Below are positions 1-30,950 of a stretch of 64,000 nucleotides of DNA, piece after piece. The notes below the pieces were generated by a model that saw only the letters and a program-made list of their open reading frames with translations, made no database searches and was not told the DNA's origin. Position numbers and translations under genes: made by a program. The stretch is from a virus (lineage: Duplodnaviria > Heunggongvirae > Uroviricota > Caudoviricetes): the IMG/VR virus record IMGVR_UViG_3300027807_000001, positions 19,285 to 83,284 of that record; one strand, written 5' to 3'. Position 1 is the stretch's first letter. Each line of letters begins with the position of its first letter.

Positions 1-481
1 GATCGCCATATGCAGCTGTGTGATATATCTTCAGATATCGAGTACCATCATCGACAACTTTGAAATCAGAGAAAGAAGCAGTAACAACGGGAGAGGATGT
101 TACAGGAGCAGCTATTTCTTTAAGGGCTGCTTTGGCTAACGCTTCTTTAATATCTTTAGCGATGACATCAACTTCAGACTTGTTAATAGAAACAGGGATA
201 GAGGCTATTCTTTCTTGGCTACCATCGAGGAATGATACCCTTGCAGTAATTTTGCCGGAGTACATCGGGACACTAGATTCTGCGTCTTCTGTAGCAGATA
301 AGCTATCAACCTTTGTTTCGAGGATCTTTGCACCCGCAATAGTTCTTAGATGCGCAGTGAGCGTTCGCTCCGCTTTAAATACAAATTTCGCTTTAATATC
401 CGACAAACGATATTCTTCAGCGGAATCTCTGCGCCGCAATGAATCGACCGCTTTAAACTTTCCGTCTAAATTGTTATCCAT
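1..481 (-). CDS. hypothetical protein, 3' end cut by window edge (MDNNLDGKFKAVDSLRRRDSAEEYRLSDIKAKF...)
   Basis: minus frame open from ATG (481-479) to position 2; SD AGGAGCACC upstream; K/E/D-rich protein-like composition; the + ORF 60-512 over it is low-complexity antisense. Confidence 0.5.
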   Translation of the reverse strand, partial: MDNNLDGKFKAVDSLRRRDSAEEYRLSDIKAKFVFKAERTLTAHLRTIAGAKILETKVDSLSATEDAESSVPMYSGKITARVSFLDGSQERIASIPVSINKSEVDVIAKDIKEALAKAALKEIAAPVTSSPVVTASFSDFKVVDDGTRYLKIYHTAAYGD

Positions 482-579
482 GGTGCTCCTCTGCTTTAAT
501 GACTTAACGTAAAATTGACATAACTTCTATATAAATAAACTGGCCGATAATAGTGTTTCTGCTTAGTTCGTCATAAAAA

Positions 580-602
580 TTGCACAGGCGACTGTGTATA
601 AT
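580..602 (+). promoter_or_regulatory. weak candidate promoter upstream of tmRNA (TTGCAC ... TGTGTATAAT)
   Basis: TATAAT at 597-602 with TG immediately upstream; -35-like TTGCAC at 580-585 sits too close (11 nt), so weak; about 20 nt before the tmRNA 5' end. Confidence 0.25.
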
Positions 603-622
603 TAATATAAGCGACAATATTT

Positions 623-992
623 GGGCCCGAATTGGCTTCGACTATGTTGCATTTTAGTTAATTGGTGTTCCGGGTTTGTCGGCTGGCCCGGTAACAAGCC
701 GACAAAACATAACTGACAAGTCGTTACTTGCAGTGGCGAATGAGATTGTCAACAACGCGTTTGCGCGCGAATTGGCAGTAGCGTAAGCCCTCGGCCTAAT
801 AAGCCGTGTCACCCCAGTAGGTCTTCGCTCTCTTCCCACTACTGGGATCACGAAGAGAGCTGGTGGAGGGTAGCATGAAGCAGTCTACCCCTGTAGTACA
901 GAAGTAAGTTGTCGAACTCAAATCGACTACGACACTAGACGTTAACTAAAATCAATTATAGCACGTGAGTTCGACTCTCACCGGGTCCACCA
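623..992 (+). ncRNA. ssrA: tmRNA (SsrA-like) with tag ORF ANEIVNNAFARELAVA*
   Basis: 5' GGGCCCGAATTGGCTTCGAC pairs with 3' CGGGTCC-ACCA acceptor; T-arm GTGAGTTCGACTCTCAC; length 370 nt; internal frame 736-786 encodes ANEIVNNAFARELAVA then TAA. Confidence 0.7.
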
Positions 993-998
993 CTTTAA

Positions 999-1337
999 AT
1001 GAGCGAAGACGATAAGTTCAGAGCAAACCTCTGCCGCATCCTAGGCCATAACTACGATGAGATGGGCGTATGCCTCCGCTGTGAACCGGAGATAAGTGCC
1101 CAGCTAAAACACTCTTTATATTCTATGTCTGTGGGACGTAAAATTACAGGTAACCTCTTGGAGGAGGCAAAGATGTGTGCGGCTAACGTTCTAGAAACAA
1201 TGCGCCAGGAGGGCAAAATAGATTCGTTCTCCGATTTGAGAACATCCCTATCCATCTACGGCTGCCCCACTATATTCGTAACCGTAAGATATCCACAGCA
1301 ACTGACTAATATCCAACTGCAGGTGCAATTTAGCTAA
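999..1337 (+). CDS. Cys-rich hypothetical protein (subfamily B motif NLCRILGHNY...CLRC)
   Basis: ATG ORF straight after tmRNA; LxCxLGH motif shared with about 10 other ORFs. Confidence 0.5.
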   Translation: MSEDDKFRANLCRILGHNYDEMGVCLRCEPEISAQLKHSLYSMSVGRKITGNLLEEAKMCAANVLETMRQEGKIDSFSDLRTSLSIYGCPTIFVTVRYPQQLTNIQLQVQFS

Positions 1338-1522
1338 TGGAAATTAGAGGTACGACTTGGGAAATTAAATGCAGCTGTGGCGAATTTATTTCAGCTGATG
1401 ATAACGCTCATAAGAGTAAATGTTTAGCTTTCCAGGTCAACGGCCTTATTGAGGAATACCGCGTCACCTTAGAAGTTCCTGCAGAGTACATAACTATGAC
1501 ATATGATTTTGAGCCAAGTTAA
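1337..1522 (+). CDS. hypothetical small protein
   Basis: TAATG overlap with previous ORF; 61 aa. Confidence 0.4.
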   Translation: MEIRGTTWEIKCSCGEFISADDNAHKSKCLAFQVNGLIEEYRVTLEVPAEYITMTYDFEPS

Positions 1523-1676
1523 AAAGTTACGTAGAGATCTCTGTAGAGCTGTAGGACATGCCGAGCTTGACGTTCGATACCGGTGTACCCGTTATAAAAA
1601 GTTTAATTGGGTGGGTTATTTATGATGGCGGTTACGCAATAATCAACCCCACGCCTATTATGTCTATAAATATATC

Positions 1677-1871
1677 ATGAGAGATGAAGATCTGCCCGAT
1701 TTTACCCCGACGCATATTAATTCCGCGATTAAAGAGTTTATTCCAAATCTTTGCTGCGAAGTCAACCCAACCGTAATAGTTTACCGGAAAAGAGTGTGTC
1801 AGCGCTGTTTTGACGTATTACGCGCTAGTTATGGAGCAGATGCCTGGATGCTAGGCGGCGGCAGTGAATAA
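1677..1871 (+). CDS. LCC-family Cys-rich mini-protein (LCCEVNP)
   Basis: N-terminal LCCxVNP motif followed by CxxC. Confidence 0.55.
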   Translation: MRDEDLPDFTPTHINSAIKEFIPNLCCEVNPTVIVYRKRVCQRCFDVLRASYGADAWMLGGGSE

Positions 1872-1921
1872 GTTAAATCACCTCACCAGGCCCAAACATT
1901 AGGTCTGAACAAAAGTTAAAC

Positions 1922-2149
1922 ATGTTTGAGCCGACAAAATCTCTAGAAACTATTCAGGCAGAACTATGCTGTTACGTAGCAAGAGCAGGAGGCTCTGTAG
2001 TAATTTCTTGTGACTCCTGCGGATGGTACATCTGTAACGAATGTTTTGTTGCACTGGGCCCAGTATCCGCCCAGATACTTTTACTGGGTACCTGTAAGAA
2101 TTGTCGTAAGCCTTTCTCCTCCCACCTGGATCACTTGTCCGATCCTTAA
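1922..2149 (+). CDS. LCC-family divergent member (LCCYVA...CDSCGWYICNEC)
   Basis: LCC motif plus CxxC and CxxC. Confidence 0.5.
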   Translation: MFEPTKSLETIQAELCCYVARAGGSVVISCDSCGWYICNECFVALGPVSAQILLLGTCKNCRKPFSSHLDHLSDP

Positions 2150-2292
2150 TCCCTCCTCCAAATTAAACAGCAACCCCGCTGTTTGGCCGTACCTCCCGCG
2201 AATTTTATTTGTCGCCCATCGAGGCATAAAGAAGGCGGCATCGCTGCTTCGCAACGCCGCACTCGCTCAATCTAATGAGATATCTTCAGAAA

Positions 2293-2511
2293 CTACGTTT
2301 CTTCAGGAGAATCTTCTCTCGGAATAAGGGGATCATCTTGCAAAGTCGCCATGCCCTTCTGGGCTAGATCAAGAAGAATCCACTTCAGTCTAGAGACCTT
2401 ACATCTAGTGCACTGACGTGGGCCCGGCTTATTGTCCCATGTATGCCCCATAAGGCGACAAAGATCTCTGCGCAGCTTCTTAATTTGGCTTATTCTCATC
2501 AGGTCGATCAT
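2293..2511 (-). CDS. Cys-containing hypothetical (LCRLMGHTW...CTRC, subfamily B-like)
   Basis: minus-strand ORF; subfamily B motif; first of a small minus-strand block 2293-3512. Confidence 0.45.
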   Translation of the reverse strand: MIDLMRISQIKKLRRDLCRLMGHTWDNKPGPRQCTRCKVSRLKWILLDLAQKGMATLQDDPLIPREDSPEET

Positions 2512-2717
2512 ACCAGCTTATCTAAGTGGACGCCGCTATCATCCAGGAGCTTTATTAACTTGTCGTAAAGCTCTGAGTCATGGATATCGGGATCATAAAT
2601 AATGTCGTATATCTTCTCGCGCAGCTTCTCTTTCTTATTTTGTCTTTTCATCGGAGAGCTCCATTTTAAATTGACTGATAAGTTCCTCTTGAAGTTTAAC
2701 TGCCTCCCGGTAATCAA
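2508..2717 (-). CDS. hypothetical protein (true start probably the internal ATG near 2652)
   Basis: minus ORF; overlaps the next minus ORF unless the internal start MKRQNKKEK is used. Confidence 0.35.
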   Translation of the reverse strand: MITGRQLNFKRNLSVNLKWSSPMKRQNKKEKLREKIYDIIYDPDIHDSELYDKLIKLLDDSGVHLDKLV

Positions 2718-2910
2718 AAGAGGAACTTAGGCCTAACACAGATCGAGTGTACACCTCCGCTTCAACTCGACACTCCTGATCTTTTGTCATCTCAAGATCG
2801 TACGCTTGCTTCAGTACTCGCCTAATAGGAGGAATCATGCAGGCGGCAACCTTCTTGTATCCATCTTCGGCCGACATTAATCTACTAAACGCCTCATCGA
2901 TGGGCTTCAC
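2635..2910 (-). CDS. hypothetical protein
   Basis: minus ORF of 91 aa with balanced composition. Confidence 0.45.
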   Translation of the reverse strand: MKPIDEAFSRLMSAEDGYKKVAACMIPPIRRVLKQAYDLEMTKDQECRVEAEVYTRSVLGLSSSFDYREAVKLQEELISQFKMELSDEKTK

Positions 2911-3000
2911 TGCAGCGCTGCCCGACTAACAAAATAGTACAACCCGCCGTACCCTACCACGAGAGTAATGGTACTTATTACTAAAAACCATAGGAAGTAT

Positions 3001-3222
3001 TTAAGATAGATCATTGTTTTCTACATGAATTGTTTCATGTCCACATTCAGGGTAATTACAACAGGGACAATTCTTAAGACGTTCTTCAGCCAACTGTGTT
3101 TGGAGTCTCACAACGTACTGTCTCATCTCTCTTAGCGCATGCAGGAGATCTATTACTTTACAATAATGTTTTGTCCCTGCCTCATAATTCTGAAGACATT
3201 CAGAGCAGCCCATGATTATCAA
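3001..3222 (-). CDS. Cys-rich hypothetical protein (CSEC...CPCCNYPEC)
   Basis: minus ORF; ATGA overlap with 3219-3512. Confidence 0.45.
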   Translation of the reverse strand: MIIMGCSECLQNYEAGTKHYCKVIDLLHALREMRQYVVRLQTQLAEERLKNCPCCNYPECGHETIHVENNDLS

Positions 3223-3512
3223 AAGGTCTGTCTGGCTGCTTGTCTTGCTGCCTTCGGTACTTCCTTCTTTGTATCCGGAAGCGGTTCCCAGGTTACGCTG
3301 CCATCTGCATGAATGACAAATACAATCGGATAAGCTTTCGGATGCAGCTTTCCATCAGATCCAGGCACTAAGACTACGGGTACTCCGATCAAGATGCCTG
3401 GATCAGCAGGAGGAGCAGCAGTCGCAGCAGTCGCGGCATACTTGGTTACCCCAACGACCAAGCCTACGATAAAACTAATTAATAAAATCCATCGGATTTT
3501 TGTGTTTTTCAT
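3219..3512 (-). CDS. small membrane or secreted protein
   Basis: N-terminal hydrophobic segment MKNTKIRWILLISFIVGLVVGV. Confidence 0.5.
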   Translation of the reverse strand: MKNTKIRWILLISFIVGLVVGVTKYAATAATAAPPADPGILIGVPVVLVPGSDGKLHPKAYPIVFVIHADGSVTWEPLPDTKKEVPKAARQAARQTF

Positions 3513-3865
3513 CCACCACCTCTATAAAAATCGACATATTCAATTTAATTATACACAGAAACCTAAAATTGGGTTTTAAAATTTTTGGTATATTTTAGGG
3601 CGATTTCGGCATTTAAACACAGATTTCGGGGTTTGGGTCGGCCGGATTTGGGGCTGATTTACTCCCAATCTTATACTATAATGTACCCTCAAAAATGCAG
3701 TTTGGGTGACAAATTTGGTAAAACCCGGGTACATTGAGAAAAACAAACAAAGTGGAAAAATGCACGATTTTGCCGGGTATATCTACCCCGGCGACATCCC
3801 CGGGTATATGCGGAGGGGATGTATACATGAGCGGGGTTAACATACCCCCGGAGGAGGTGGTAGCA

Positions 3866-3949
3866 ATGGAGAAGATGCTTGACATGCTGATGGCGTTGGT
3901 CTTGATCGTCAGCTTCGTAGAGTGGATTCGTTCGGAGGTGAACGGATGA
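3866..3949 (+). CDS. small hydrophobic peptide (MEKMLDMLMALVLIVSFVEWIRSEVNG)
   Basis: SD GGAGGAGGTG 8 nt upstream; first plus-strand gene after the divergent intergenic region. Confidence 0.35.
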   Translation: MEKMLDMLMALVLIVSFVEWIRSEVNG

Positions 3950-4083
3950 ACGTTAAGCAGAGAAGGAAGGCGGTGGATACTGATCAAGTCACCGTGCTGG
4001 ACGTTGTCGGGATGATCGCAGGAAGCGTGATCGTATTCGTTGGCATCTTAGCGTTCATCTTCGTTGCATCATTCAAAGGCTAA
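3946..4083 (+). CDS. small membrane protein (45 aa)
   Basis: ATGA overlap with previous ORF; transmembrane segment VVGMIAGSVIVFVGILAFIFVA. Confidence 0.4.
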   Translation: MNVKQRRKAVDTDQVTVLDVVGMIAGSVIVFVGILAFIFVASFKG

Positions 4084-4092
4084 GGAGGAAGT

Positions 4093-4347
4093 ATGATCAG
4101 CGTGTGTGCTTGGCATCAGCCTAAGCCGATTGTCATAGGGGAGAAGGAGCCTCTAGATGACAAACGTGAGACACACGTCATGTGTAACGATTGCGCGGCA
4201 GCTATTAATGCTGAGCTCGATCGAATCGAAAACAGAAGTAAAATCCATAGGAGAAAACAAATGAAGAAGCGAATCGTCAGCATCCTGATGTCAGCGAAGT
4301 TCCGCTGGGTTGCTTGCGGCAAGAAGCCGCTGTACATGGTGGACTAG
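4093..4347 (+). CDS. hypothetical protein (CAWHQ...CNDC)
   Basis: SD AAGGAGGAAG upstream of ATG. Confidence 0.5.
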   Translation: MISVCAWHQPKPIVIGEKEPLDDKRETHVMCNDCAAAINAELDRIENRSKIHRRKQMKKRIVSILMSAKFRWVACGKKPLYMVD

Positions 4348-4349
4348 CA

Positions 4350-4508
4350 ATGATCACACAACCGGAGCCTGCTGCTCCTCTTGGTTCGATCGTTCGCATT
4401 CGAATCGGAAGCGTGATCAAGACGGAGGAGGACTTAGGGCATTACGTTCTGCATGCGATTTACTCCATGCAGAGCGAGGGTCGTGAGTTCAAGAAGTTGG
4501 AGCGCTAG
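4350..4508 (+). CDS. hypothetical protein
   Basis: ATG just after previous stop; track start 4314 lies inside the previous gene. Confidence 0.4.
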   Translation: MITQPEPAAPLGSIVRIRIGSVIKTEEDLGHYVLHAIYSMQSEGREFKKLER

Positions 4509-4516
4509 GAGGAGCA

Positions 4517-4678
4517 ATGAAGAAGAAGAAGCTTGTCTTCGTCGTCCAAGTTGACATTGAAGAAGAGAAGGACTTCGACCTCCGAGAACCCAACGTCCGA
4601 AAGTACATTCGCGACTTCAAGGAGGAGACCGAAGCATTGTACGACACGCGAGTGAAGATCGATGAGGTCAAGTTGTAA
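4517..4678 (+). CDS. hypothetical acidic protein (53 aa)
   Basis: SD GGAGGAGCA then ATG; below the ORF track length cutoff. Confidence 0.4.
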   Translation: MKKKKLVFVVQVDIEEEKDFDLREPNVRKYIRDFKEETEALYDTRVKIDEVKL

Positions 4679-4746
4679 GTCGGTTCAATAGCTATACGCT
4701 ATTGTATTGATAAGTCGTTTAAAGTTGCTGCTGGGAGAAAACTACA

Positions 4747-4935
4747 ATGAACACTAACCACCCGCTGGACAAGTTCGTGAAGACGGTTGCGCCGAAGATT
4801 GTTCGCATCTCTTCGGGAGCGACGGCGTATATTCTGTCGCTCGAGCTGTTGGGACGATTGACGCCGCTGGGAGAGAAGATCTACACCGGCTGCGGCGACG
4901 ACATGAACAGCATGCAGCGAACGCCCGTTCGTTAG
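4747..4935 (+). CDS. hypothetical protein
   Basis: ATG ORF of 62 aa. Confidence 0.4.
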   Translation: MNTNHPLDKFVKTVAPKIVRISSGATAYILSLELLGRLTPLGEKIYTGCGDDMNSMQRTPVR

Positions 4936-4966
4936 TCAGCGGCCCAAAATTGGAATCGGAGGTCAA

Positions 4967-5140
4967 ATGAAAACGATGGTACTGATGTTGCTGGCGTGTC
5001 TTCTGATGTGCGGGTGCAAAGGAGATCAGGCGCCGTTCTTCTTCAACAACGGTCCTGATCAGAATGCGCCTGCGCACAAGGAGTGTCCGAGAGTGAGTGA
5101 CAGCTGCGGACCCAATTCGCCGCCTCACAAGGAGCTGTGA
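4967..5140 (+). CDS. putative lipoprotein (MKTMVLMLLACLLMCGCKGD...)
   Basis: signal peptide with lipobox-like LMCGC; SD GGAGG upstream. Confidence 0.45.
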   Translation: MKTMVLMLLACLLMCGCKGDQAPFFFNNGPDQNAPAHKECPRVSDSCGPNSPPHKEL

Positions 5141-5284
5141 TGAAACAACGACTGTTGTTTATGTACCTGATGTGGAAGCTGAGAAGCTTCTAACCTGTGC
5201 TACTTCCATCTGATGAGCCTCGGCGACAGCTACATGCTGTCGCCGAGGCTTTGTCTTTCTACTTGTAAGCTAATAGGAGAGTAT

Positions 5285-5608
5285 ATGAACAACGACATGC
5301 TGAAGGTTTCCACTGCGCGCCTTATCCTCGTCCGCGAGTTGGCGGAGGGGCCCAAGATGCACAAGCAGCTGCGCCTCGCCTACTTCGGCGAAGGACGAGC
5401 CGCTGGCAACGCTGCCAACACGTCCTTCTACAACAAGCTGAAGGCTGCTCTGGCGGATGGCTTGGTGAAGAAGACGGCTGTCGGAATGTACGAGCTCGAC
5501 ACCAAGGGTCTGGAAATGCTGACGTTCGTTCGCGAGCAGAAGATGGACCTGACGGCGGTGAAGAGCGAGGCGCAGGTGAGATGGGAGATGGAACACCCGC
5601 AGGCCTAA
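5285..5608 (+). CDS. winged-helix-like family protein, paralog A (LRLAYFGEGRAAGNAANTSFY)
   Basis: shares L-x-LRxAYFGExRA...T-FY...Y-LTE-G core with ORFs 7425, 8956 and 10425; SD TAGGAGAG. Confidence 0.6.
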   Translation: MNNDMLKVSTARLILVRELAEGPKMHKQLRLAYFGEGRAAGNAANTSFYNKLKAALADGLVKKTAVGMYELDTKGLEMLTFVREQKMDLTAVKSEAQVRWEMEHPQA

Positions 5609-5685
5609 GAAGTAACTGAAGAGGAGGGAATGAAAGGTCCGATCCCTTTCATAGTCGTTTAAATAAAAGCCATAGGAGAAAACAA

Positions 5686-6198
5686 ATGAGAATAGTGCTG
5701 TATGCTTCTATTCTTCCATCTGCCTGGAAGAAAGAATACCGTACGCAGGGCATTAAGAGAGTAGAGAACGTCAGTGATCTCTACGCTCAGCAGCGAGATG
5801 GCAAAGGAGGTTATATCGACATCAAGGATGCCATCTTAACGCAGGCGACCCCGTTCTGGATTCTATTCCCGAATCCTCCAGATTGGTCTAACGAAGTGGT
5901 GATTCAATTCTCTAAGGAATTGAAAGACATCTATGTTGACTTCGGAGATGAGCCCTCCGCGTATGCGGATCAGCTAATGCCGGAATGTCTAGAAGGAGAA
6001 GAAGAACTTACCTACGAGAAGCTTGATGTAGAGAAGTTCTTGAAGCAGAGCGCTCCCCTCTACGGTTCCTGGGTGAAGGAGATTCGCCCCGAAGAGATCA
6101 TGGGAGTCTACCGGCTGAAGCACAATTCGCAGACGCAGCTGGTTGACGGAGAAGAAGTGCATAAGTGGATGGAACGACAGCCGCGCGTTATAAAGTAA
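5686..6198 (+). CDS. hypothetical protein (170 aa)
   Basis: SD ATAGGAGAAAACAAATG. Confidence 0.55.
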   Translation: MRIVLYASILPSAWKKEYRTQGIKRVENVSDLYAQQRDGKGGYIDIKDAILTQATPFWILFPNPPDWSNEVVIQFSKELKDIYVDFGDEPSAYADQLMPECLEGEEELTYEKLDVEKFLKQSAPLYGSWVKEIRPEEIMGVYRLKHNSQTQLVDGEEVHKWMERQPRVIK

Positions 6199-6214
6199 CA
6201 AAGGAGAAAGCGAA

Positions 6215-6466
6215 ATGAAGAATGAGAGGCAGCCTCACCCACTCGGACCCTGGTTGTTCTACCAAGCGGAGTTCATTAAGATGAGGGACGACATCGGTCA
6301 TTACATGAAGTTGATGTTCGTCCGGAGAGATGGCAAACCGAACAAAGACTACCAGATGGTCTACGTGTGGGCTCCCAATACGGTCGTCGCTGTTCGTCAT
6401 ATCCTCTTCAGCGGAGAAGAGGATCTCACGAAGTTCAACGACGCGGTAATTCCTCGGAGGGAATGA
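6215..6466 (+). CDS. hypothetical protein
   Basis: SD AAAGGAGAAAG upstream. Confidence 0.5.
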   Translation: MKNERQPHPLGPWLFYQAEFIKMRDDIGHYMKLMFVRRDGKPNKDYQMVYVWAPNTVVAVRHILFSGEEDLTKFNDAVIPRRE

Positions 6467-6467
6467 C

Positions 6468-6668
6468 ATGGGTGAGAAGCTTCCGAAGTTGTATCCATAC
6501 CTCTTCACAGAGCGGCAGCGTTCCATCATTCACGCTGCTCTGGAAACAGAGTGGGAAGCAACCAGAGCTCTTCTAAAGGGAGAAGAGAACCGAGATGAGC
6601 TGATCACAATACGTGACTATATGAGTGAGACGGAGACACTCATGAAACAAATGAAGGAGGGACAATGA
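6468..6668 (+). CDS. hypothetical protein
   Basis: compact spacing; SD GGAGGGA. Confidence 0.45.
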   Translation: MGEKLPKLYPYLFTERQRSIIHAALETEWEATRALLKGEENRDELITIRDYMSETETLMKQMKEGQ

Positions 6669-6919
6669 GCAAGAAAGATAGACACATAGTCGTTCCTGAT
6701 ACGTTTGAAGAGGCCGAAGCTGCTGACACCAGTACTCTTGAATCTGATGGAATCATGGAGGCTGCTTCACACTTTGTTATGAGTGAGACGGAGCCCCTCG
6801 AGATCACAGAAGAGTATATGTGCACGGCTTGCTTCGACGTTTTCACCAAGGCTGACCTTAATGGTAACCTCGATGACTGCCCTAACTGCAAAGAGAAAGA
6901 AGTAATCATGGAGAGGTGA
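6665..6919 (+). CDS. zinc-ribbon-like hypothetical protein (CTAC...CPNC)
   Basis: ATGA overlap; two CxxC pairs. Confidence 0.5.
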   Translation: MSKKDRHIVVPDTFEEAEAADTSTLESDGIMEAASHFVMSETEPLEITEEYMCTACFDVFTKADLNGNLDDCPNCKEKEVIMER

Positions 6920-6925
6920 ATCGAA

Positions 6926-7105
6926 ATGAAGAAGAGAAGGAAAGAATTCATGGTCACAATCAAAGTGAAGTGGAGAACGTCTGATGGGATCTTTGCGTTG
7001 GAAGATCTCCACGCGCTTCTTCAGAAGTTGAATAATGAATTAGAGGCGACGGAGAAGGGAAAGTTCGAAGCAGGAACGACCGGCGCGACGTTCACCGCTA
7101 AGTAA
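6926..7105 (+). CDS. hypothetical protein (59 aa)
   Basis: SD GGAGAGGTGA; below track cutoff. Confidence 0.4.
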   Translation: MKKRRKEFMVTIKVKWRTSDGIFALEDLHALLQKLNNELEATEKGKFEAGTTGATFTAK

Positions 7106-7120
7106 CAAAGGAGAAATCAA

Positions 7121-7399
7121 ATGACTAAGAAAGATAAAGTAGCACTAGAGAGGGCTTGGAAGAGAAAGATGGAGCTTACTGCGAAGGCACACAAGATCCT
7201 CTTAAGAGGATCTAAACACTTCGAAAAGGTTCAATCGGAGATCTTCAAGAAGATACGTGCTAGGGCCCTTAAGAGACAGGTGAGGGAGCCGTGGATGGCT
7301 ACGACCTGGATTCCTGTCGTAGCTCCTCACTACGCTCCTTTCGATATAGTTGTTCGTATCGGGAGCAGAAGCAAGAAGCTCAGATACACCGTTAAGTAA
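7121..7399 (+). CDS. basic hypothetical protein
   Basis: SD AAAGGAGAAA; K/R-rich. Confidence 0.5.
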   Translation: MTKKDKVALERAWKRKMELTAKAHKILLRGSKHFEKVQSEIFKKIRARALKRQVREPWMATTWIPVVAPHYAPFDIVVRIGSRSKKLRYTVK

Positions 7400-7424
7400 A
7401 ATAAAACCAATAGGAGAAACTAAA

Positions 7425-7661
7425 ATGATGAAGATCACGTTCGAGAAGATGAAGATCCTGACGGCGCTGATCAACGGACCGAAATCTCACAAGCTCCTTC
7501 GCTTAGAGTACTACGGAGAGGAGCGAGCGAAGAACCCTGCTAACACTTCCTTCTATAATCAGCTCAACCGGATGATGGAGGCTGGACTGATCCAGAAAGA
7601 TGTTGTGGGCGTCTACAGCATCACGGAGTTCGGTCAGCAGGTTCTTGAGGAGGCTATCTAG
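7425..7661 (+). CDS. winged-helix-like family protein, paralog B (LRLEYYGEERAKNPANTSFY)
   Basis: family motif; SD TAGGAGAAAC. Confidence 0.6.
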   Translation: MMKITFEKMKILTALINGPKSHKLLRLEYYGEERAKNPANTSFYNQLNRMMEAGLIQKDVVGVYSITEFGQQVLEEAI

Positions 7662-7662
7662 C

Positions 7663-7836
7663 ATGAAAACATTATCAATAATCGAGGCGGTGATGGCTGC
7701 GTACCCCGACGTGAGATCATACGAGGTAACTCCTATGTTTGAGAACGAAGACGACCTCATTAAGTTCGCCCGCGAATGTGCGGCTTCAGTTGGAGCGAAA
7801 CTCGTCATCGATGTACGGCCATCAGACTACTTATAG
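7663..7836 (+). CDS. hypothetical protein (57 aa)
   Basis: SD GAGGAGG; start context GAGGCTATCTAGCATG repeated at 7836-7853. Confidence 0.4.
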   Translation: MKTLSIIEAVMAAYPDVRSYEVTPMFENEDDLIKFARECAASVGAKLVIDVRPSDYL

Positions 7837-7863
7837 AGAGGCTATCTAACATGGAGATACCCG

Positions 7864-8067
7864 ATGAATCCAATAGATGAGAAGTGCGTCTTCTGCGACG
7901 ACGTAGCCGTAATAGAAGTGTGCGGAGAGAAGCCCGACGTCTGGATAGCAGTATGCCAGGCACACATTGATGACTACCGGGTGCAGCTCTGCACTATCTG
8001 TGGGTGTCTTCTAACTAAGCACGCGGCTACCTGTTCTAAGAATCCCGCTGCGGGAGGTGGCGCATAA
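7864..8067 (+). CDS. Cys-rich hypothetical protein (CVFC...CQAH...CTICGC)
   Basis: ATG ORF of 67 aa. Confidence 0.45.
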   Translation: MNPIDEKCVFCDDVAVIEVCGEKPDVWIAVCQAHIDDYRVQLCTICGCLLTKHAATCSKNPAAGGGA

Positions 8068-8127
8068 GACTACATGCATCTGTCTGGGCCCAGGGGACAG
8101 GCAATTGTCTCTGCTACCCATACGTGT

Positions 8128-8160
8128 GGTGAGGTCTCAGGTGCACCTCACCAAAATAAA
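8128..8160 (+). terminator. intrinsic terminator hairpin GGTGAGGT/ACCTCACC with A/T-rich tail
   Basis: 8-bp GC-rich stem followed by AAAATAAAAA; ends the 3.8-8.1 kb gene block. Confidence 0.5.
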
Positions 8161-8180
8161 AAGGCCTTAAGTAAAATATA
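8146..8180 (+). promoter_or_regulatory. degenerate copy of the CCTCAC...TAAGTAAAATAT promoter-like element
   Basis: CCTCACC...TAAGTAAAATATA with a short spacer; overlaps the terminator 3' arm. Confidence 0.3.
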
Positions 8181-8214
8181 TCCTCAGCGTCTGCGCACGA
8201 CTCTATAGCCTTAT

Positions 8215-8250
8215 CCTCACAAAAAGATATAGGGTCGATAAGTAAAATAT
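8215..8250 (+). promoter_or_regulatory. promoter-like element CCTCACAAAAAG-N16-TAAAAT (copy 2)
   Basis: 10-copy conserved motif; -10-like TAAGTAAAATAT; 29 nt upstream of ORF 8279. Confidence 0.5.
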
Positions 8251-8278
8251 CGCATCACCTTCATAGGAGCCTATACAA

Positions 8279-8668
8279 ATGCTGACCCATGAACGCAATA
8301 AGAATCCTCGGACGAAGCGAGGGTGCCTCGCTTGCTACCAGATCGGTTCCACCGGAAAGGCGTTCGGATACATCGAGCTGACCTTGATGCCGATGTACGT
8401 CTCGAAGAAGGAAGGGGCGCCGCAGAAGTTGCCGGTCACGAAGGTCGTTGGTCTTTGCTTCAAGCATACCAAGGAGATGTGCGACCAGAGTCAGGGCTTC
8501 TGGCAAAAGACTCCCTTCGGGAAGATTCCCGTTCGCGATGAGGTCTACGCTCTTCGAGCGGAGTCCAAGGCCGTTAAGACTCCTTACTCCGCTCGGGACG
8601 AAGAGAAGACTTACCGGTCGGCGGCGCCGGGGGAGAGACCCTTCCTTCGCGTTCCGATGTGGTGGTGA
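8279..8668 (+). CDS. hypothetical protein (129 aa)
   Basis: first ATG after promoter copy 2; SD TAGGAG. Confidence 0.5.
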   Translation: MLTHERNKNPRTKRGCLACYQIGSTGKAFGYIELTLMPMYVSKKEGAPQKLPVTKVVGLCFKHTKEMCDQSQGFWQKTPFGKIPVRDEVYALRAESKAVKTPYSARDEEKTYRSAAPGERPFLRVPMWW

Positions 8669-8669
8669 C

Positions 8670-8885
8670 ATGAAGGCAAGCATCTTCGACGCGGCGGAAG
8701 TAGAACTTATCTATGGCATCCTCAATAAGATTGCCATGGCGGTTCCTCTGGATCAGACGGACAAGTCCGTGGCGAAAGCTCTGGTTGCCCGGTCGTTCGA
8801 CTGGACGCTGGCGAAAGCTCTGGCTGCCCGGATCGAAGCGCGAGACAGTAAGCTTTATCCTCACAAAAGCTTTAATGGTCTTTAA
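8670..8885 (+). CDS. hypothetical protein with internal AKALVAR/AKALAAR repeat
   Basis: ATG 2 nt after previous stop; track ORF 8448-8885 begins inside the previous gene; 3' end runs through promoter copy 3. Confidence 0.4.
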   Translation: MKASIFDAAEVELIYGILNKIAMAVPLDQTDKSVAKALVARSFDWTLAKALAARIEARDSKLYPHKSFNGL

Positions 8886-8894
8886 GTAAAATAG
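8859..8894 (+). promoter_or_regulatory. promoter-like element (copy 3) CCTCACAAAAG-N-TAAGTAAAATAG
   Basis: conserved motif; 60 nt upstream of ORF 8956. Confidence 0.45.
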
Positions 8895-8955
8895 ATCATC
8901 GACGTAGCCGTTCAACGATATAAGTCCTTAGGGTGACCTAAGGCAGGAGAAAGAA

Positions 8956-9312
8956 ATGTCCAACGAAGTCAAGCCGTTGCAGGTCAAGGAAGGGATGGTC
9001 GTGATTCTGCGGGCTCTGGAGAACGGGCCGCTCGGGTTCTCCAAGCTGCGGACCGCGTACTTCGGAGAGGGTCGCGCGAAGCTGCCCGCCACCACGGCCT
9101 TCTACATGAAGACCAAGGAAGCGCTGGAGAAGAAGCTGATCCAGAAGATCGACAAGACCTACAGCCTGACCGAGCTGGGCCAGGTGACCATCGCCGCTGT
9201 TCCGGACGAGGTCAAGGCCTCGGCGAAGTCCGAGGCGCAGAAGGCCTTCGAAGCCAGCCCGAAGGGCATCGCGTGGGCCGCGGCGCAGGCCGAGACCGAG
9301 GTCGCGGCTTAA
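8956..9312 (+). CDS. winged-helix-like family protein, paralog C (LRTAYFGEGRAKLPATTAFY)
   Basis: family motif; GC-rich codon usage; SD AGGAGAAAG. Confidence 0.6.
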   Translation: MSNEVKPLQVKEGMVVILRALENGPLGFSKLRTAYFGEGRAKLPATTAFYMKTKEALEKKLIQKIDKTYSLTELGQVTIAAVPDEVKASAKSEAQKAFEASPKGIAWAAAQAETEVAA

Positions 9313-9335
9313 GAACCGGACCCTGCCTTAGAGAC

Positions 9336-9368
9336 GGCCGCGGCAGATCTATATGGTCTGCCGCGGCC
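9336..9368 (+). terminator. GC-rich hairpin GGCCGCGGCAGA/TCTGCCGCGGCC (possible terminator)
   Basis: 12-bp perfect stem 24 nt after the stop of 8956-9312; weak U-tract. Confidence 0.4.
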
Positions 9369-9746
9369 TCTGTACAGAGATATCCGAGAGCCAGCCGTAT
9401 ATACCTAGACACAGTCTAGCCGTCTGGCTGATAGGCTTGGGTATCTCTATACAGGGGCTTGCAGTTAGTGGACGTGTAGCTAATGGAGTCCTGAGCAATC
9501 TCTATAGACAGTGGTATAGAGTTGAGACTGATACAAGTCCACTGGATGCATCTACTCGGTGCTACAAAATAGAGTACGCTAGTAGGAACCGGTGGCTCAG
9601 AGCTATGACCTCTTTATTCCGGAGGCCCATAGACACAGCTCCCTAATTAAAGGGACAAAAGGCCATCCTAGTACAGGGAATAGAAGGACGCTAGCAGTCA
9701 CAGAGTTGGACGCCATAACGACTAGCAGCGCGTAGAGACTAGTCGA

Positions 9747-9816
9747 GTTAGTCACGGATGAGCTAGGCCCAGGTGAATCGATACCTGCGAAGGCGGGAGC
9801 GATCCGTGCACATTTT
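9747..9816 (+). promoter_or_regulatory. bipartite leader element GTTAGTCACGG-N46-CCGTGCACATTTT (copy a)
   Basis: conserved flanks shared with 6 other loci; CACGG/CCGTG can close a hairpin; 44 nt upstream of ATG 9860. Confidence 0.45.
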
Positions 9817-9859
9817 GTACCGCCGTTGAAGACCAATAACCATACAAGCGAGGTGTCAT

Positions 9860-10162
9860 ATGGCTTCGAAGGTCTATCGTCCCGACTCACTCGGTCAGGT
9901 GATGGAGATGAATCACTCCGCCCTGTGCTTCAAGTCGCATAAGGAATTCCGTCCCGTCAAGGAAGCTTACAACGTGGCCAAGGATCTCTTCGTCAGCGAG
10001 GAGCAGCTGTTCCAGCAGGCCGTCGAACGCTGGCACAAGGCCAAGGAAAATTTTCGGAACGCCCGGCAGCATTTCCGGATCTGCCTGGAGGCGCGGCAGA
10101 CGCTTCAAAAAGATTGCCCGAGGTGCGAGCTGAATCGCTCCCTCACGGAAAAGAAGGACTAG
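9860..10162 (+). CDS. hypothetical protein (100 aa)
   Basis: ATG after leader element; SD-like GAGGTG. Confidence 0.5.
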   Translation: MASKVYRPDSLGQVMEMNHSALCFKSHKEFRPVKEAYNVAKDLFVSEEQLFQQAVERWHKAKENFRNARQHFRICLEARQTLQKDCPRCELNRSLTEKKD

Positions 10163-10179
10163 CCTTCGTAGGAGGTCCA

Positions 10180-10368
10180 ATGGATGAGACAGTCGTAGAC
10201 TGGCTCGGTAGACCGCTGGGCATCGTAAAGAAGGAAGGGGATCGTACAACCGTCACCTCATGGACGGGAGATCCCCTCGGATCGGCAGATAATAAAGGTA
10301 CGCGTACGTGGCTGGGACAACCCGTAAGTCCCAACAACGTGCCAGACCTCTTGCTGCCGAAGAAGTAA
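10180..10368 (+). CDS. hypothetical protein with W-x-G-x-P-L-G repeats
   Basis: SD GTAGGAGGTCCA then ATG; track start 10114 lies inside the previous gene. Confidence 0.45.
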   Translation: MDETVVDWLGRPLGIVKKEGDRTTVTSWTGDPLGSADNKGTRTWLGQPVSPNNVPDLLLPKK

Positions 10369-10424
10369 GTGCCCTACACTAGGTAACTAGGTAGGTTTGT
10401 CCGTATACCGTAAGGAGAAATACC

Positions 10425-10805
10425 ATGGCTACGCATACGCATCCGTCCACCAAGGCCGCGGCCGTCCCCGTTCAGACCGCGATGTCCAACAAAGCCGGGA
10501 AGCTGACCCCGGGCCGCATCGTCCTGCTCCGAGAGCTGCACAAGGCGCCGGGCGGCATCCTGAGCTTCGGTCAGCTCCGGATGGCGTACTTCGGGAAAGA
10601 GAGGGGCGCGGGCAACAAAGCCACGACGGCGTTCTACATGGCTCTGCAGCGCGTGATCGAGTTCCTCTGGATCGACAAGAACCCCGAGGGCGGCTATCGG
10701 CTGTCCGAGGCGGGAAAGGACATCATCGAAGCGGAGCTCAAGAAGGACCCGCGCGCCGTGGACCGCGCTCAGTCGCAGGCGGCGTTGAAGTACCACGTCG
10801 CCTAG
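10425..10805 (+). CDS. winged-helix-like family protein, paralog D (LRMAYFGKERGAGNKATTAFY)
   Basis: family motif; SD AAGGAGAAATACC; very GC-rich. Confidence 0.6.
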   Translation: MATHTHPSTKAAAVPVQTAMSNKAGKLTPGRIVLLRELHKAPGGILSFGQLRMAYFGKERGAGNKATTAFYMALQRVIEFLWIDKNPEGGYRLSEAGKDIIEAELKKDPRAVDRAQSQAALKYHVA

Positions 10806-10910
10806 TAGCGTAAGCCGTACGATCACCTGAGCCCAGCCGGGAGGGCGGCAGCACTATCCCGGCACAATTTTGTTATACGTGGGATGTCGACTTAACTTCG
10901 AGGTATTAAA

Positions 10911-11213
10911 ATGCTCCGAGAAGACATCAGTGCCACCATTCCCACCCTGCCTACCAGCGTCGTCTCTCCTGTCCATACCGAAGGATGCCGGACATCCCAC
11001 CAGACCTTCAAGGAGAGACAGGCGCGGTACGAAGCCGCCAAGCGTCGCAACAAGGCTGCCCATGAGGCCTTCAAGGCCGCCGTCGCTTCTTGGGAAGCCG
11101 AGAAAGAGAAGTTCCGAGAAGATGCCGACATCTTCTTCACGACCTTGGACATCCGCAAGGCCATCCAGAGCAAGTGCGCCGGCTGCTGCGGCGGTCGCAA
11201 GACCAAGAGGTAA
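10911..11213 (+). CDS. hypothetical protein (CAGCCGG C-terminus)
   Basis: SD GAGGT; balanced composition, unlike the P/S/R-rich alternative frame 10870-11262. Confidence 0.45.
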   Translation: MLREDISATIPTLPTSVVSPVHTEGCRTSHQTFKERQARYEAAKRRNKAAHEAFKAAVASWEAEKEKFREDADIFFTTLDIRKAIQSKCAGCCGGRKTKR

Positions 11214-11216
11214 CCC

Positions 11217-11456
11217 ATGGATCTCGAAAATCCTAAGTGCCCTTTCTGGTCTAAGCGCATGACCAATAAAGATCTCAAGGCTCGCCGGTGCGCCTCCCAG
11301 CAGCTTGTGCCTGTGCCAACCCCTAAAGGCAAGACCCTCTTGATCTGCCGGCAGCACAGGGCAGAGTTTCTTCAGACCGGAAAAGTCCGCACCAAGGTCG
11401 AAGCCAACCAACCTTACTCGACCCGCATCTACCGACCCACGGAGTGGCACAAGTGA
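11217..11456 (+). CDS. Cys-containing hypothetical protein (CPFW...CRQH)
   Basis: ATG 4 nt after previous stop. Confidence 0.5.
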   Translation: MDLENPKCPFWSKRMTNKDLKARRCASQQLVPVPTPKGKTLLICRQHRAEFLQTGKVRTKVEANQPYSTRIYRPTEWHK

Positions 11457-11508
11457 GCGACAAAGAAATCGCCAAGCGCTGGATGGATCATCTCTACGGA
11501 GTGACCAA

Positions 11509-11694
11509 GTGAGATTCTGGAATGACTTCCTCAGCCTCTTGATGGGCATCTATCTGTTCACATTCGGATGGATGTTCGTTTGGGGACTGATGTCCCACGT
11601 CGACCCCGTTCTTAACAGGTCGAATCGTTATCGATTCGAATTGATCTGCCCTGGCTATCAGCTCGGCAGATGGCTTACGGAGGCCGTCAAGTGA
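11509..11694 (+). CDS. small membrane protein
   Basis: hydrophobic LMGIYLFTFGWMFVWGLM. Confidence 0.45.
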   Translation: MRFWNDFLSLLMGIYLFTFGWMFVWGLMSHVDPVLNRSNRYRFELICPGYQLGRWLTEAVK

Positions 11695-11927
11695 ACGAAC
11701 CTATCATACTTCCAAGCGGATGGATCATCACCGCGGACCCTAAGGCCGAGGGATGCAAGCGCGCCATCGTCTTCCTTAAGAAGCGAATCATCTTTATGTC
11801 GCCGGCCATGTTCAGTTTGCTGGAAACCGACAGGAAGGCTGTCTTGGCCTCTCTTAAGTTCCTGAATGCCGATGCCCTTCTGGATGCCGAAATGGCCGGG
11901 TCGCGCACAAGCGGAGTGGCCACATGA
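11691..11927 (+). CDS. hypothetical protein (GTG start overlapping previous stop)
   Basis: GTGA overlap; track ATG start 11670 lies inside the previous gene. Confidence 0.35.
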   Translation: MNEPIILPSGWIITADPKAEGCKRAIVFLKKRIIFMSPAMFSLLETDRKAVLASLKFLNADALLDAEMAGSRTSGVAT

Positions 11928-12175
11928 TCTTGCTCCTGATCCTCCTGGCACTGTACGCTGCTCTCTTCCTCGGATGGGATGTATCCCGCTATGACAGGGA
12001 GAGAGGGGTCTGGGCGGCGTCGCTCTGGTTAGTCGGAACCGTTCTCTTAGCCGTCCTGGTCTTCCTCCGGCTCTTCCCCTGGTGGGTCGCTTTGATCTTC
12101 CAGTTCTGGTTGGACCAGGTCGTCAGCAACTTCAAACGGATCGACGGTAAAGAAGAAGTAGATTCTAATTTCTAG
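11924..12175 (+). CDS. membrane protein (two transmembrane segments)
   Basis: ATGA overlap; strongly hydrophobic. Confidence 0.5.
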   Translation: MILLLILLALYAALFLGWDVSRYDRERGVWAASLWLVGTVLLAVLVFLRLFPWWVALIFQFWLDQVVSNFKRIDGKEEVDSNF

Positions 12176-19793: not shown

Positions 19794-19795
19794 GT

Positions 19796-24945: not shown

Positions 24946-25292
24946 ATCATCCTAAAAATTGCTTAGTCTGTAGTGTACAACGCCCTACAGGTCGACTCGA
25001 GATGTGGGAGTATAAGGAAGGAGAAAAAACTATCGCCGGGTTAATTTTCGGAGATTCTAAAGGAAGATGGGAGGATGGTCATTGGATTCGCTCTTCTCTT
25101 CTCAAGAATCTCGACATCGAGAATGGTCACGCACTCACACTGAATTCCCTATACGTGCTTGGGGAAAGATCAAACAAGTGTCTTCGCTGTTATCGAGGCA
25201 CTGTCTCCGATGACAATCTATCAAGGCGTCTTGGAGCATGTGTAGCGTGTCAACAGAAGGGAATTGTCTCCAGCAAGGTATCAAATGAATAG
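24927..25292 (+). CDS. hypothetical Cys-containing protein
   Basis: 121 aa ORF. Confidence 0.45.
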   Translation: MVENSVNHPKNCLVCSVQRPTGRLEMWEYKEGEKTIAGLIFGDSKGRWEDGHWIRSSLLKNLDIENGHALTLNSLYVLGERSNKCLRCYRGTVSDDNLSRRLGACVACQQKGIVSSKVSNE

Positions 25293-26469: not shown

Positions 26470-26763
26470 ATGACCCCGACGATAGAAGCCCCTGAGGTAG
26501 GTACCATCAGTATTTCGGATTCCCGAACAGAGAATGCAATGAATTGGAATGTCGTACTCCACAATTGCGACTGCCATACATTCACAGATGTAGAAGATTC
26601 TCTTGTCAGAGTTATCCGCTGCGACCTAGAGAAGGCGAAAGAGTACGCGATGACTGTTCACGAGAAAGGAGTCTGCGTCGTATTTTCAGCACACAAGGAA
26701 AGGGCGGAAGTAAAATATCTAGGATTAAAAGAAGACGGTCTAACAGTTGAACTGACTAAATAG
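26470..26763 (+). CDS. clpS: ClpS-like adaptor protein
   Basis: WNVVLHNCDCHTFTDVEDSLVRV...AMTVHEKGVCVVFSAHKERAE matches the ClpS core fold pattern. Confidence 0.65.
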   Translation: MTPTIEAPEVGTISISDSRTENAMNWNVVLHNCDCHTFTDVEDSLVRVIRCDLEKAKEYAMTVHEKGVCVVFSAHKERAEVKYLGLKEDGLTVELTK

Positions 26764-30569: not shown

Positions 30570-30950
30570 ATGATACTCTGGTTAGACGATATTCGAGATC
30601 CTTCGGCCTTTCGACCTTCCGATGATCGCTATGTGTGGTGTAAGACCAATACGGAGTTTATCCGCAAACTAGACACGATGAGCGCTCATATTGAAGGCGT
30701 CGCCTTCGATCACGATAAGAGTCACGCTCTCGACAGCGAGAGTGTTGTCGCTCCGTTCTCTTGCGACGAGACGTACGAGCCTTCTGTTCGTTATCTAGTT
30801 CTCTGGGCGGAGAAGTATGATAAGAGGGATTTCCCTGTCGAGATCATAACTTCTAATGTCGCAGGTGCAGATCGGTATAAGAAAATTCTTACCGCCGAAG
30901 ACAACACGCGGTTTAATATAATCATGAATCTTGGTGGCGTAAGAAGATAG
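30570..30950 (+). CDS. hypothetical protein (N-terminus MILWLDDIRD, receiver-like start)
   Basis: SD GAGGTAAAATTATG; no recognised catalytic motif. Confidence 0.5.
   Translation: MILWLDDIRDPSAFRPSDDRYVWCKTNTEFIRKLDTMSAHIEGVAFDHDKSHALDSESVVAPFSCDETYEPSVRYLVLWAEKYDKRDFPVEIITSNVAGADRYKKILTAEDNTRFNIIMNLGGVRR

Follow-up and report, generated by a model that had tools for sequence, protein, structure and literature searches.

A phage-encoded tmRNA kept at one locus in a group of large uncultured phages

A tmRNA gene between two divergent gene modules

We analyzed a stretch of 64,000 nucleotides (nt) from a Caudoviricetes virus (IMG/VR record IMGVR_UViG_3300027807_000001, positions 19,285 to 83,284), here called the window, in which an earlier note made from the sequence had described a virus-encoded transfer-messenger RNA (tmRNA) of 370 nt at positions 623 to 992. 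Coordinates below are window positions on the plus strand unless stated otherwise. The window is part of a Joint Genome Institute metagenome contig of 210,340 bp (Ga0116230_10000007), and this contig is viral, as its size of 210 kb, its large terminase, and its PHROG-matching phage genes show. ARAGORN called a one-piece tmRNA at exactly 623 to 992, and the Rfam covariance model RF00023 matched the same positions with 84.6 bits (gathering score, 47; E value, 2.2e-31) over model positions 1 to 374 of 374. Because ARAGORN, RF00023, and the sequence itself agree, the described coordinates and features are confirmed far beyond chance. Two independent Logan assemblies also contained the tmRNA and its flanks with 100% identity over 451 nt, so that three assemblies agree and the gene is not an assembly artifact.

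The gene occupies a divergent intergenic region. On its left lies the 5' part of a gene for a 441-amino-acid (aa) protein (P0001; 1 to 482, minus strand), the first gene of a leftward structural and packaging module, with the large terminase encoded 6.5 kb further left (phrog_2, 1e-25). On its right follow approximately 130 mostly small plus-strand open reading frames (ORFs), some of which match PHROG families. The first of these, at 999 to 1337, encodes 112 aa, starts 6 nt past the tmRNA 3' end, and is probably cotranscribed with the tmRNA.

The 441-aa protein had 33 uncultured homologs with 41 to 100% identity. Eight more distinct tmRNAs were found at the same position, between the 441-aa gene and the first divergent ORF, and the neighbor proteins of these eight relatives were 50 to 75% identical to that of the window. 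This synteny in diverged relatives, together with the viral contig, bears out the description of the element as virus encoded. Several remoter relatives, whose neighbor proteins were 41 to 62% identical, had no tmRNA at that position. In L016 and L017 (50% identity in the 441-aa protein), a tRNA-Asn and a tRNA-Ala were found upstream of the homologous gene (3309 to 4253 of those loci, minus strand) and no tmRNA was present in that region, so the tmRNA is not universal in the wider lineage. Searches of GenBank phages gave no match for the tmRNA (blastn in distant mode), for window positions 1 to 12000 (megablast), or for the peptide tag that the tmRNA encodes (tblastn). The 32-mer at the tmRNA 3' end had no match in IMG/VR, and an exact look-up of ORF 999 to 1337 found none on record. 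At the protein level, identities to cultured phages were below 30% at best, and these comparisons place the phage in an uncultured, distant lineage.

RNA architecture and covariation

The structure was tested on the window sequence and its eight relatives, nine sequences whose tmRNA alignment had a mean column identity of 66%. The tested structure comprised 57 base pairs, pseudoknot stems included, and covered the acceptor stem, three segments of helix 2, stems 1 and 2 of pseudoknots PK1 and PK2, the hairpin after the stop codon, and the T-arm. With this explicit structure, 97.0% of cells were paired, compared to 36 to 44% when the 3' partners were slid by 1 to 3 columns, and double-sided changes were present at 41 of the 57 pairs. 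RNAalifold reported compensatory changes at 34 of 55 pairs. On four of five structure measures, not one of 500 shuffles equaled the observed value.

The acceptor stem and the T-arm of the earlier description were both recovered. In the acceptor stem, GGGCCCG (623 to 629) pairs with CGGGUCC (982 to 988), and the 3' strand is followed by the discriminator A989 and an encoded CCA (990 to 992). All seven pairs were kept in all nine sequences, with four of them double changed; the discriminator was A in all nine, and G625·U986, the alanine identity pair G3·U70, was invariant. The D-loop-like element UUCGAC (637 to 642) fits the Rfam consensus UUCGAC, and its UCGA was invariant in all nine sequences. 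The T-arm, GUGAG-UUCGACU-CUCAC (965 to 981), was 100% paired across the alignment and carried double changes at four of five pairs.

The 5' strand of helix 2 (659 to 669) pairs with 931 to 944, and an extra segment at 642 to 645 pairs with 958 to 961; the helix 2 segments were paired in 92 to 100% of cells and double changed at 12 of 15 pairs. An alternative helix of 908 to 911 with 930 to 933, which competes with helix 2, was rejected. PK1 (670 to 703) consists of stem 1 (670 to 674 with 687 to 691; 98% paired, double changes at four of five pairs) and stem 2 (678 to 684 with 697 to 703; 83% paired, double changes at three of seven pairs, with two members misaligned by one column). Directly after the stop codon of the tag lies an H5-like hairpin, CGGC-CUAAUAA-GCCG (792 to 806), with UAAUAA in its loop. 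It was 100% paired in the six sequences that have it, with double changes at three of four pairs, and is deleted in L010, L027, and L012. Both stems of PK2 (813 to 860; stem 1, 813 to 819 with 840 to 846; stem 2, 827 to 833 with 854 to 860) were 100% paired, with double changes at six of seven and five of seven pairs, respectively.

Folding of the individual sequences placed a hairpin, GGGUAG-CAUGAAGCAGU-CUACCC (868 to 890; stem, 868 to 873 with 885 to 890), at the position of PK3. In L010, L027, and L012, a second stem of GGUG with CACC, read by eye from the sequences, makes PK3 a true pseudoknot. A compact PK4-like pseudoknot lies at 906 to 927, with stem 2 formed by GUCGA (911 to 915) and UCGAC (923 to 927) and stem 1 by AGU (907 to 909) and ACU (916 to 918). 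The best pseudoknot candidate had this same architecture in six of the nine sequences, and its stems covary, stem 2 from GUCGA/UCGAC to GCCCA/UGGGC and stem 1 from UAAGU/ACUUA to GGU/ACC. Hence, among the four pseudoknots sought, PK1 and PK2 are supported by covariation, PK3 of the window is no more than a hairpin, and PK4 is compact. Reduction of PK3 and PK4 occurs in many tmRNA lineages. Judged by predicted structure, all tmRNA-defining features that can be checked in silico appear to be present, PK3 and PK4 in partly reduced form.

The tag reading frame

ARAGORN read the tag as DKSLLAVANEIVNNAFARELAVA. In the window, the resume context is AUAACU (709 to 714), whose A at position -4 and U at position -5 correspond to A86 and U85 of E. 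coli, where A86 is the main determinant of the frame and the change U85C is tolerated (PMC2481249). The motif A[UC]AA[AC]U was found approximately 11 nt past PK1 in all nine sequences, always with A at -4 and always followed by a codon beginning with G. From this motif, one frame was open for 22, 23, 25, or 26 codons to a UAA in every sequence, and both other frames were closed. The window frame (715 to 786) runs from a GAC resume codon through 23 codons to UAA at 784 to 786, and the internal ORF does end in ARELAVA-UAA, as had been noticed earlier.

Comparison of the nine frames showed a coding-type substitution pattern. Variable codon columns numbered 17, 12, and 22 of 23 at codon positions 1, 2, and 3, respectively, and pairwise codon differences were synonymous in 279 cases and nonsynonymous in 329 (46% synonymous). 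Residues L4, A8, V12, A15, F16, R18, L20, and A23 were invariant, position 5 was Leu or Val, and the clade tag ended in L-x-[VIP]-A-UAA. All length differences lay upstream of GCG 736 and all were whole codons (+9, +6, and -3 nt). In the homologous register, the tags of the relatives read ANKLLAAANEIVNNAFERELTVA (L007), ANTLLTEASAIVESAFARELAVA (L011), ANTLLSEAEAIVESAFVRELAVA (L025), ANSLLAEAQMIVENAFTRELVVA (L014), ANKPNTLVSAAEAIVEAAFARDLVVA (L010), ANTPNKLVSEAVAIVEAAFSRSLVIA (L027), AKLLAEANKIVEAAFNRALAVA (L030), and AKPNKLLAVAEEVVEQAFGRVLVPA (L012).

The earlier note had given a 16-residue tag, ANEIVNNAFARELAVA, which forms the C-terminal part of the 23-residue peptide. For that reading to be right, translation would resume at GCG 736 and the preceding 21 nt would be an untranslated linker. 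GCG encodes the canonical alanine, the resulting ANE... start looks like canonical AN- tags, and an A is again found at -4 of GCG 736, within a CAG that by eye seems conserved in the alignment, while the GAC of the window is an atypical start. Yet in all eight relatives a GCN codon directly follows A[UC]AA[AC]U, 11 nt past PK1, with the spacing and context of the E. coli AAUAGUC|GCA; the indels upstream of the 16-residue start preserve the frame; and the codons there are free of stops and conserved as amino acids (invariant Leu4, Leu/Val5, and Ala8), with the other two frames closed. Resumption at GCG 736 is thus unlikely, and the 16-residue assignment is probably wrong. Since the spacing and context of the motif, the open frame, the whole-codon indels, and the peptide conservation upstream of GCG 736 all point the same way, we consider it highly probable from these comparisons that the tag comprises 23 codons beginning at GAC 715. 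A small hairpin in the first seven tag codons, CAAGU-CGUU-ACUUG, was not conserved among the relatives and was not retained. A likeness of the tag to those of cyanobacteria (ANNIV..FAR..) was also considered and found no support in these data.

Promoter, 3' end, and the rightward transcript

A candidate sigma-70-type promoter for the tmRNA and the rightward operon is provided by the box TGTGTATAAT (593 to 602), in which a TATAAT -10 hexamer (597 to 602) is preceded by TG. The sequence TGTATAA[TGA], approximately 20 nt upstream of the mature 5' end, was conserved in eight of the nine sequences (alignment A5), with a perfect TATAAT in the window, and this conservation suggests promoter function. 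A simple promoter scan missed the box because it has no good -35 element. Between the box and the gene lies a 5' leader (603 to 622) carrying AAGCGACAAT at 609 to 618, conserved in seven of the nine sequences; by analogy with known tmRNA maturation, it would be removed by RNase P. A further conserved motif, TTGAC(A/G)..ACTTCTAT(A)TA(A)ATTAAAT, was observed upstream of the TGTATAAT box at 515 to 545 in the window and in the eight relatives (A5). The window copy contains TATAAATA and may be a phage-specific promoter of one of the two divergent units.

An ATG was found 3 to 10 nt past the tmRNA 3' end in all nine sequences, and no terminator-like site was present on the plus strand between the tmRNA and ORF 999 to 1337. 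Because of the upstream TATAAT-type box and the closeness of this ATG, the tmRNA probably leads a polycistronic transcript that runs rightward. The encoded 3' end varied, being a full CCA in four of the nine genes, CC plus another base in three, and absent in two. Maturation would thus probably require that nucleases trim the 3' end and, for most of the clade, that CCA be added. Since CCA is not fully encoded in five of the nine genes, this need fits the presence of a phage CCA-adding enzyme (tRNA nucleotidyltransferase plus HD domain) at 36440 to 37819 (PF01743, 1.6e-18; HD, 4.5e-09; phrog_2244, 7.7e-72). The enzyme is a candidate accessory for maturation and repair of tmRNA and tRNA 3' ends, its link to the tmRNA being suggested by the CCA that those five genes lack.

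Origin of the clade tmRNA and possible hosts

We searched one genome per species, from 185,579 species of bacteria and archaea, for the tag-core pattern I-V-[EN]-x-A-F-x-R-x-L-x-x-A-stop and obtained no match. In IMG/VR the pattern was found only in two known clade members, and the tag is therefore clade specific. An RNA signature composed of PK1 stem 2, the A-rich linker, and the resume context matched 10 genome loci, compared to approximately 5 expected by chance. Three of these matches were real tmRNAs, two from Chlamydiales metagenome-assembled genomes (MAGs) and one from an Omnitrophota MAG; six others were chance matches, not tmRNAs.

The two chlamydial tags (L038 and L039) were 22 and 26 aa long. 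That of L038, AKQNSKIVNVNFSQELPLAVAA, resembled the phage core IVNNAFARELAVA beyond its shuffled versions (z, 3.9; P, ~0.003), and the similarity of the L039 tag to the phage core was not significant (P, ~0.09). The chlamydial ssrA locus is on a genuine cellular contig, flanked by genes for isoleucyl-tRNA synthetase and adenylate kinase. Beyond signature and tag, the chlamydial RNAs resembled the phage clade no more than E. coli ssrA did, and there a chlamydial relationship had no support. Codons ending in A are those read by the phage tRNAs, a hint that the host G+C content exceeds that of typical chlamydiae. An origin of the clade tmRNA in the Planctomycetes-Verrucomicrobia-Chlamydiae (PVC) group is a tentative lead rather than a finding, possible though well short of probable. 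To our knowledge, no large phages have been described for Chlamydiota or related PVC bacteria. The same PK1/resume signature was observed in a tmRNA of another viral record (L044, 8903 to 9244, plus strand; IMGVR_UViG_3300028920_000618; 106 bits) that has a short tag, ANAELKMAA, adjoins RecA and DnaB-like genes and seven tRNAs, and was found by Rfam and missed by ARAGORN. It was rejected as a relative, having no proteins in common with the phage studied here.

These data also bear on whether the gene is merely passive host DNA without function for the phage, either a remnant of an ssrA attachment site, a recent capture, or a misassembled fragment. ssrA is the integration site of many temperate elements, which carry pieces of the gene (PMC9004378), and the clade shares its RNA signature with ssrA of Chlamydiales and Omnitrophota. 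The gene, however, is full length rather than a 3' fragment, is identical in three assemblies, and has been kept at one locus through change at 34% of positions with compensatory pairing, and its tag core occurs in none of the species-representative genomes. No integrase family was found among the Pfam matches in the window and the upstream region scanned; the set scanned with Pfam consisted of 10 ORFs of at least 200 aa, 77 window ORFs of at least 85 aa, and five upstream genes, approximately 73 of the 210 kb. We regard passive carriage as extremely improbable.

Proposed function of the phage tmRNA

The RNA architecture, the covariation, the position of the locus, the tag frame, and the 3'-end variation observed here lead us to conclude, with a probability of roughly 80%, that the element is a functional one-piece tmRNA of the phage and that selection has kept it among these large uncultured relatives. 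Several points weigh against this conclusion. The Rfam score, at 85 bits, is well under those of the cellular tmRNAs tested (142 to 161 bits). At the PK3 position of the window, folding gave no convincing second stem, and stem 1 of PK4 is weakened to 3 bp in the window. The resume codon of the window is GAC (Asp), compared to GCN (Ala) in all eight relatives, and the tag ends in -VA, not in the canonical -AA. No SmpB (PF01668), ArfA/ArfB-like, or release-factor family was found in the Pfam-scanned ORFs, and reliance on the SmpB of the host is presumably the case, an assumption drawn from those ~73 of 210 kb.

Given a phage tmRNA, we propose the following sequence-based course of events. Transcription would start from the TATAAT-type box, with the tmRNA as the first element of a rightward unit whose genes are small and of early type. 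RNase P and 3' processing would produce the mature ends, the CCA end being completed or repaired by the CCA-adding enzyme, and host alanyl-tRNA synthetase would charge the RNA with alanine by way of G3·U70. Together with SmpB, presumably that of the host, as the phage DNA examined showed none, the tmRNA would enter ribosomes stalled on broken or non-stop mRNAs. Resumption at GAC 715 would add (Ala)-DKSLLAVANEIVNNAFARELAVA, and termination at UAA 784 to 786 would free the ribosome. The nonpolar ...L-A-V-A C terminus would most likely send the product to host proteases that recognize C-terminal degrons, for which a nonpolar C terminus is the type recognized. The likely benefit to the phage would be that ribosomes are kept available while host mRNA decay and RNA-targeting defenses stall them. 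Such a benefit fits the neighboring genes for a polynucleotide kinase-phosphatase (PNKP; 45020 to 45901), a T4 Rnl1-type RNA ligase (40084 to 41223), the CCA-adding enzyme, and four tRNAs (Met-CAU at 19795, Val-UAC at 21544, Arg-UCU at 24271, and Leu-UAA at 42084). The suggestion in the earlier note that the virus supplies trans-translation capacity or tags stalled products in its own way appears reasonable.

A cyclic-phosphate-processing receiver domain (cREC_REC; 30570 to 30950) is encoded in the same region. The RNA repair and maturation genes are interspersed with the four tRNAs over 19795 to 45901 on the plus strand, and the suite looks like a counter to host defenses that cleave tRNA or other RNA.

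A homolog of the ClpS adaptor family is encoded at 26470 to 26763 (PF02617, 1.4e-14; 54 bits, compared to a cutoff of 23), 13 nt past the gene for a BCS1-like AAA+ ATPase (BCS1_N plus AAA; 25264 to 26457; phrog_7485, 7e-93). This pairing recalls the bacterial clpS-clpA arrangement. The closest solved chain to the ClpS homolog is 4o2x, a ClpS-domain protein; in the alignment, N-D-D-I-H of that chain faces N-C-D-C-H of the query, so that the first Asp is a Cys here. The homolog had no tblastn match among GenBank phages, and a single-protein locus search of IMG/VR with the ATPase found nothing. Some jumbo phages have ClpS genes of their own (PMC7824862 and PMC6102473), and E. coli ClpS is cited in the latter paper as altering the substrate choice of ClpAP. 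The phage homolog may modulate the fate of tagged proteins, and a link to the tag is speculative.

A bolder proposal is that the clade tmRNA descends from a Chlamydiae- or PVC-type ssrA, which would make these phages of ~200 kb viruses of Chlamydiota or related PVC bacteria, and/or that the tag is a virus-specific signal read by the ClpS adaptor and the BCS1-like ATPase, not a standard host degron. We consider it decidedly doubtful.

The same genes enter into the question of whether the phage RNA serves mainly as a decoy, titrating the SmpB of the host or competing with the host's own tmRNA and either blocking host trans-translation or substituting a tag that is left undegraded or is read by the phage. 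Phage molecules that consist of the tRNA-like domain (TLD) only do exist, as in mycobacteriophage DS6A, and inhibit tmRNA, perhaps by titrating SmpB (PMC4131195). The tag studied here is clade specific, long (22 to 26 aa), amphipathic, ends in -VA, and is absent from the 185,579 species-representative genomes, and the phage encodes a ClpS-family adaptor beside an AAA+ ATPase. A pure SmpB sponge, however, needs no PK1, PK2, resume context, or peptide-conserved frame, all of which are maintained, and the nonpolar C terminus is of the type generally seen by C-terminal-degron proteases. A decoy role is accordingly an improbable one for this RNA, and a tmRNA active in trans-translation remains the reading that we prefer.

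Comparison with other tmRNAs

As the earlier note had stated, tmRNAs are rare but known in large phages. They have been reported in Bacillus phage G and eight Bxz1-like mycobacteriophages, besides the TLD-only form of DS6A (PMC4131195); in 402 of 18,146 isolate phage genomes, or 2.3% (PMC9004378); and in huge phages, which carry tmRNA and SmpB (PMC7162821). The tmRNA described here is thus a known type of phage accessory gene and, like those of the huge and isolate phages, a translation-related one, though unlike the huge phages no SmpB was found here in the part scanned. The Melnitz-like marine phages have two-piece, riboswitch-linked tmRNAs; this one is in one piece, and an Rfam scan of the window found only the tmRNA and the four tRNAs, with no riboswitch.

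A close likeness is to the Bxz1-like phages (Bixzunavirus), which are large, tRNA-rich, lytic-type phages with a one-piece tmRNA. We checked the Bxz1 tmRNA directly and found a score of 73.9 bits on Rfam, compared to 84.6 bits for the window, and a tag of 25 aa, ATDTDATVTDAEIEAFFAEEAAALV, so that phage tmRNAs with long tags are no novelty. Both tags (25 and 23 aa) have an Ala/Glu/Phe-rich, helix-prone core and a nonpolar end other than LAA, but they are unrelated beyond composition, and the two RNAs have no detectable nucleotide similarity. In addition, the Bxz1 gene lies inside a tRNA cluster, whereas the gene here heads a rightward operon in a divergent intergenic region beside the structural module.

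Among cellular RNAs, the ssrA of the two Chlamydiales MAGs shares with the phage the signature of PK1 stem 2, A-rich linker, and resume context, as well as resumption at nucleotide 93 and long tags, but these RNAs are 413 to 420 nt long, score 142 to 149 bits on Rfam, and have tags ending in -AA or -CA. E. coli ssrA and the phage RNA have the same order of elements, namely, the TLD, helix 2, PK1, an 11-nt A-rich linker with U-5 and A-4, a G-initial resume codon, a tag ORF with a nonpolar end, the positions of PK2 to PK4, the T-arm, and ACCA. They differ in the tag, which has 10 codons and ends in -AA in E. coli compared to 23 codons and -VA in the phage, and in that the phage stop codon precedes the H5-like hairpin rather than lying inside it, with PK3 reduced and PK4 compact in the window.

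What goes beyond routine annotation is the correction of the tag from 16 to 23 residues, a tag conserved as a peptide and unlike any sequenced bacterial tag, the fixed place of the gene at the head of an early operon, the frequently unencoded CCA in a phage with a CCA-adding enzyme and RNA-repair genes, and the weak connection to Chlamydiales and Omnitrophota, a signature that offers a testable host lead. That phages carry tmRNAs shows an investment by some viruses in keeping host ribosomes running; we know of no phage tmRNA that has been functionally characterized. With nine diverged copies at a fixed locus, the clade is a clean comparative case for asking whether such RNAs serve as extra rescue against RNA-cleaving defenses or for rerouting tagged proteins.

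Other genes and features of the window

Three large genes (441, 390, and 604 aa) adjoin the tmRNA on the structural side. They had no match in Pfam or PHROG and probably encode head proteins that are either novel or strongly diverged. These genes correspond to 4815 to 9145 (minus strand) of L005, which continues window positions 1 to 482, and many residues of the 441-aa protein are invariant. On the other side of the tmRNA, the small ORFs at 999 to 1337, 1503 to 1625, and 2293 to 2511 (minus strand) share the motif L-(R/C)-R-(D)-L-C-R-x-x-G-H-x-(W/Y)...C-x-R-C, the copies being FRANLCRILGHNYDEMGVCLRC in the first, KKLRRDLCRAVGHAEL...RYRCTRYKKFNW in the second, and KKLRRDLCRLMGHTWD...CTRCKVSRLKW in the third. 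By this motif, their products may be paralogs, a family of small early proteins that contain Cys.

The G+C content of positions 8001 to 12000 was 0.54 to 0.575, compared to approximately 0.46 elsewhere, and this island coincides with a run of minus-strand ORFs (9603 to 11549) in a region of plus-strand genes. It may be a recently acquired segment; a 231-aa ORF within it (10854 to 11549) had no family match. Farther to the right, a MoxR-like AAA ATPase (49415 to 50467, plus strand; phrog_1297, 1e-65) is followed by a DUF2201_N/DUF2201 protein (metallopeptidase-like plus VWA-like; 53517 to 54785), and a second DUF2201-matching ORF was present among those scanned. The ORF at 57805 to 59016 (plus strand) matched phrog_1314, annotated as HNH endonuclease (7e-69).

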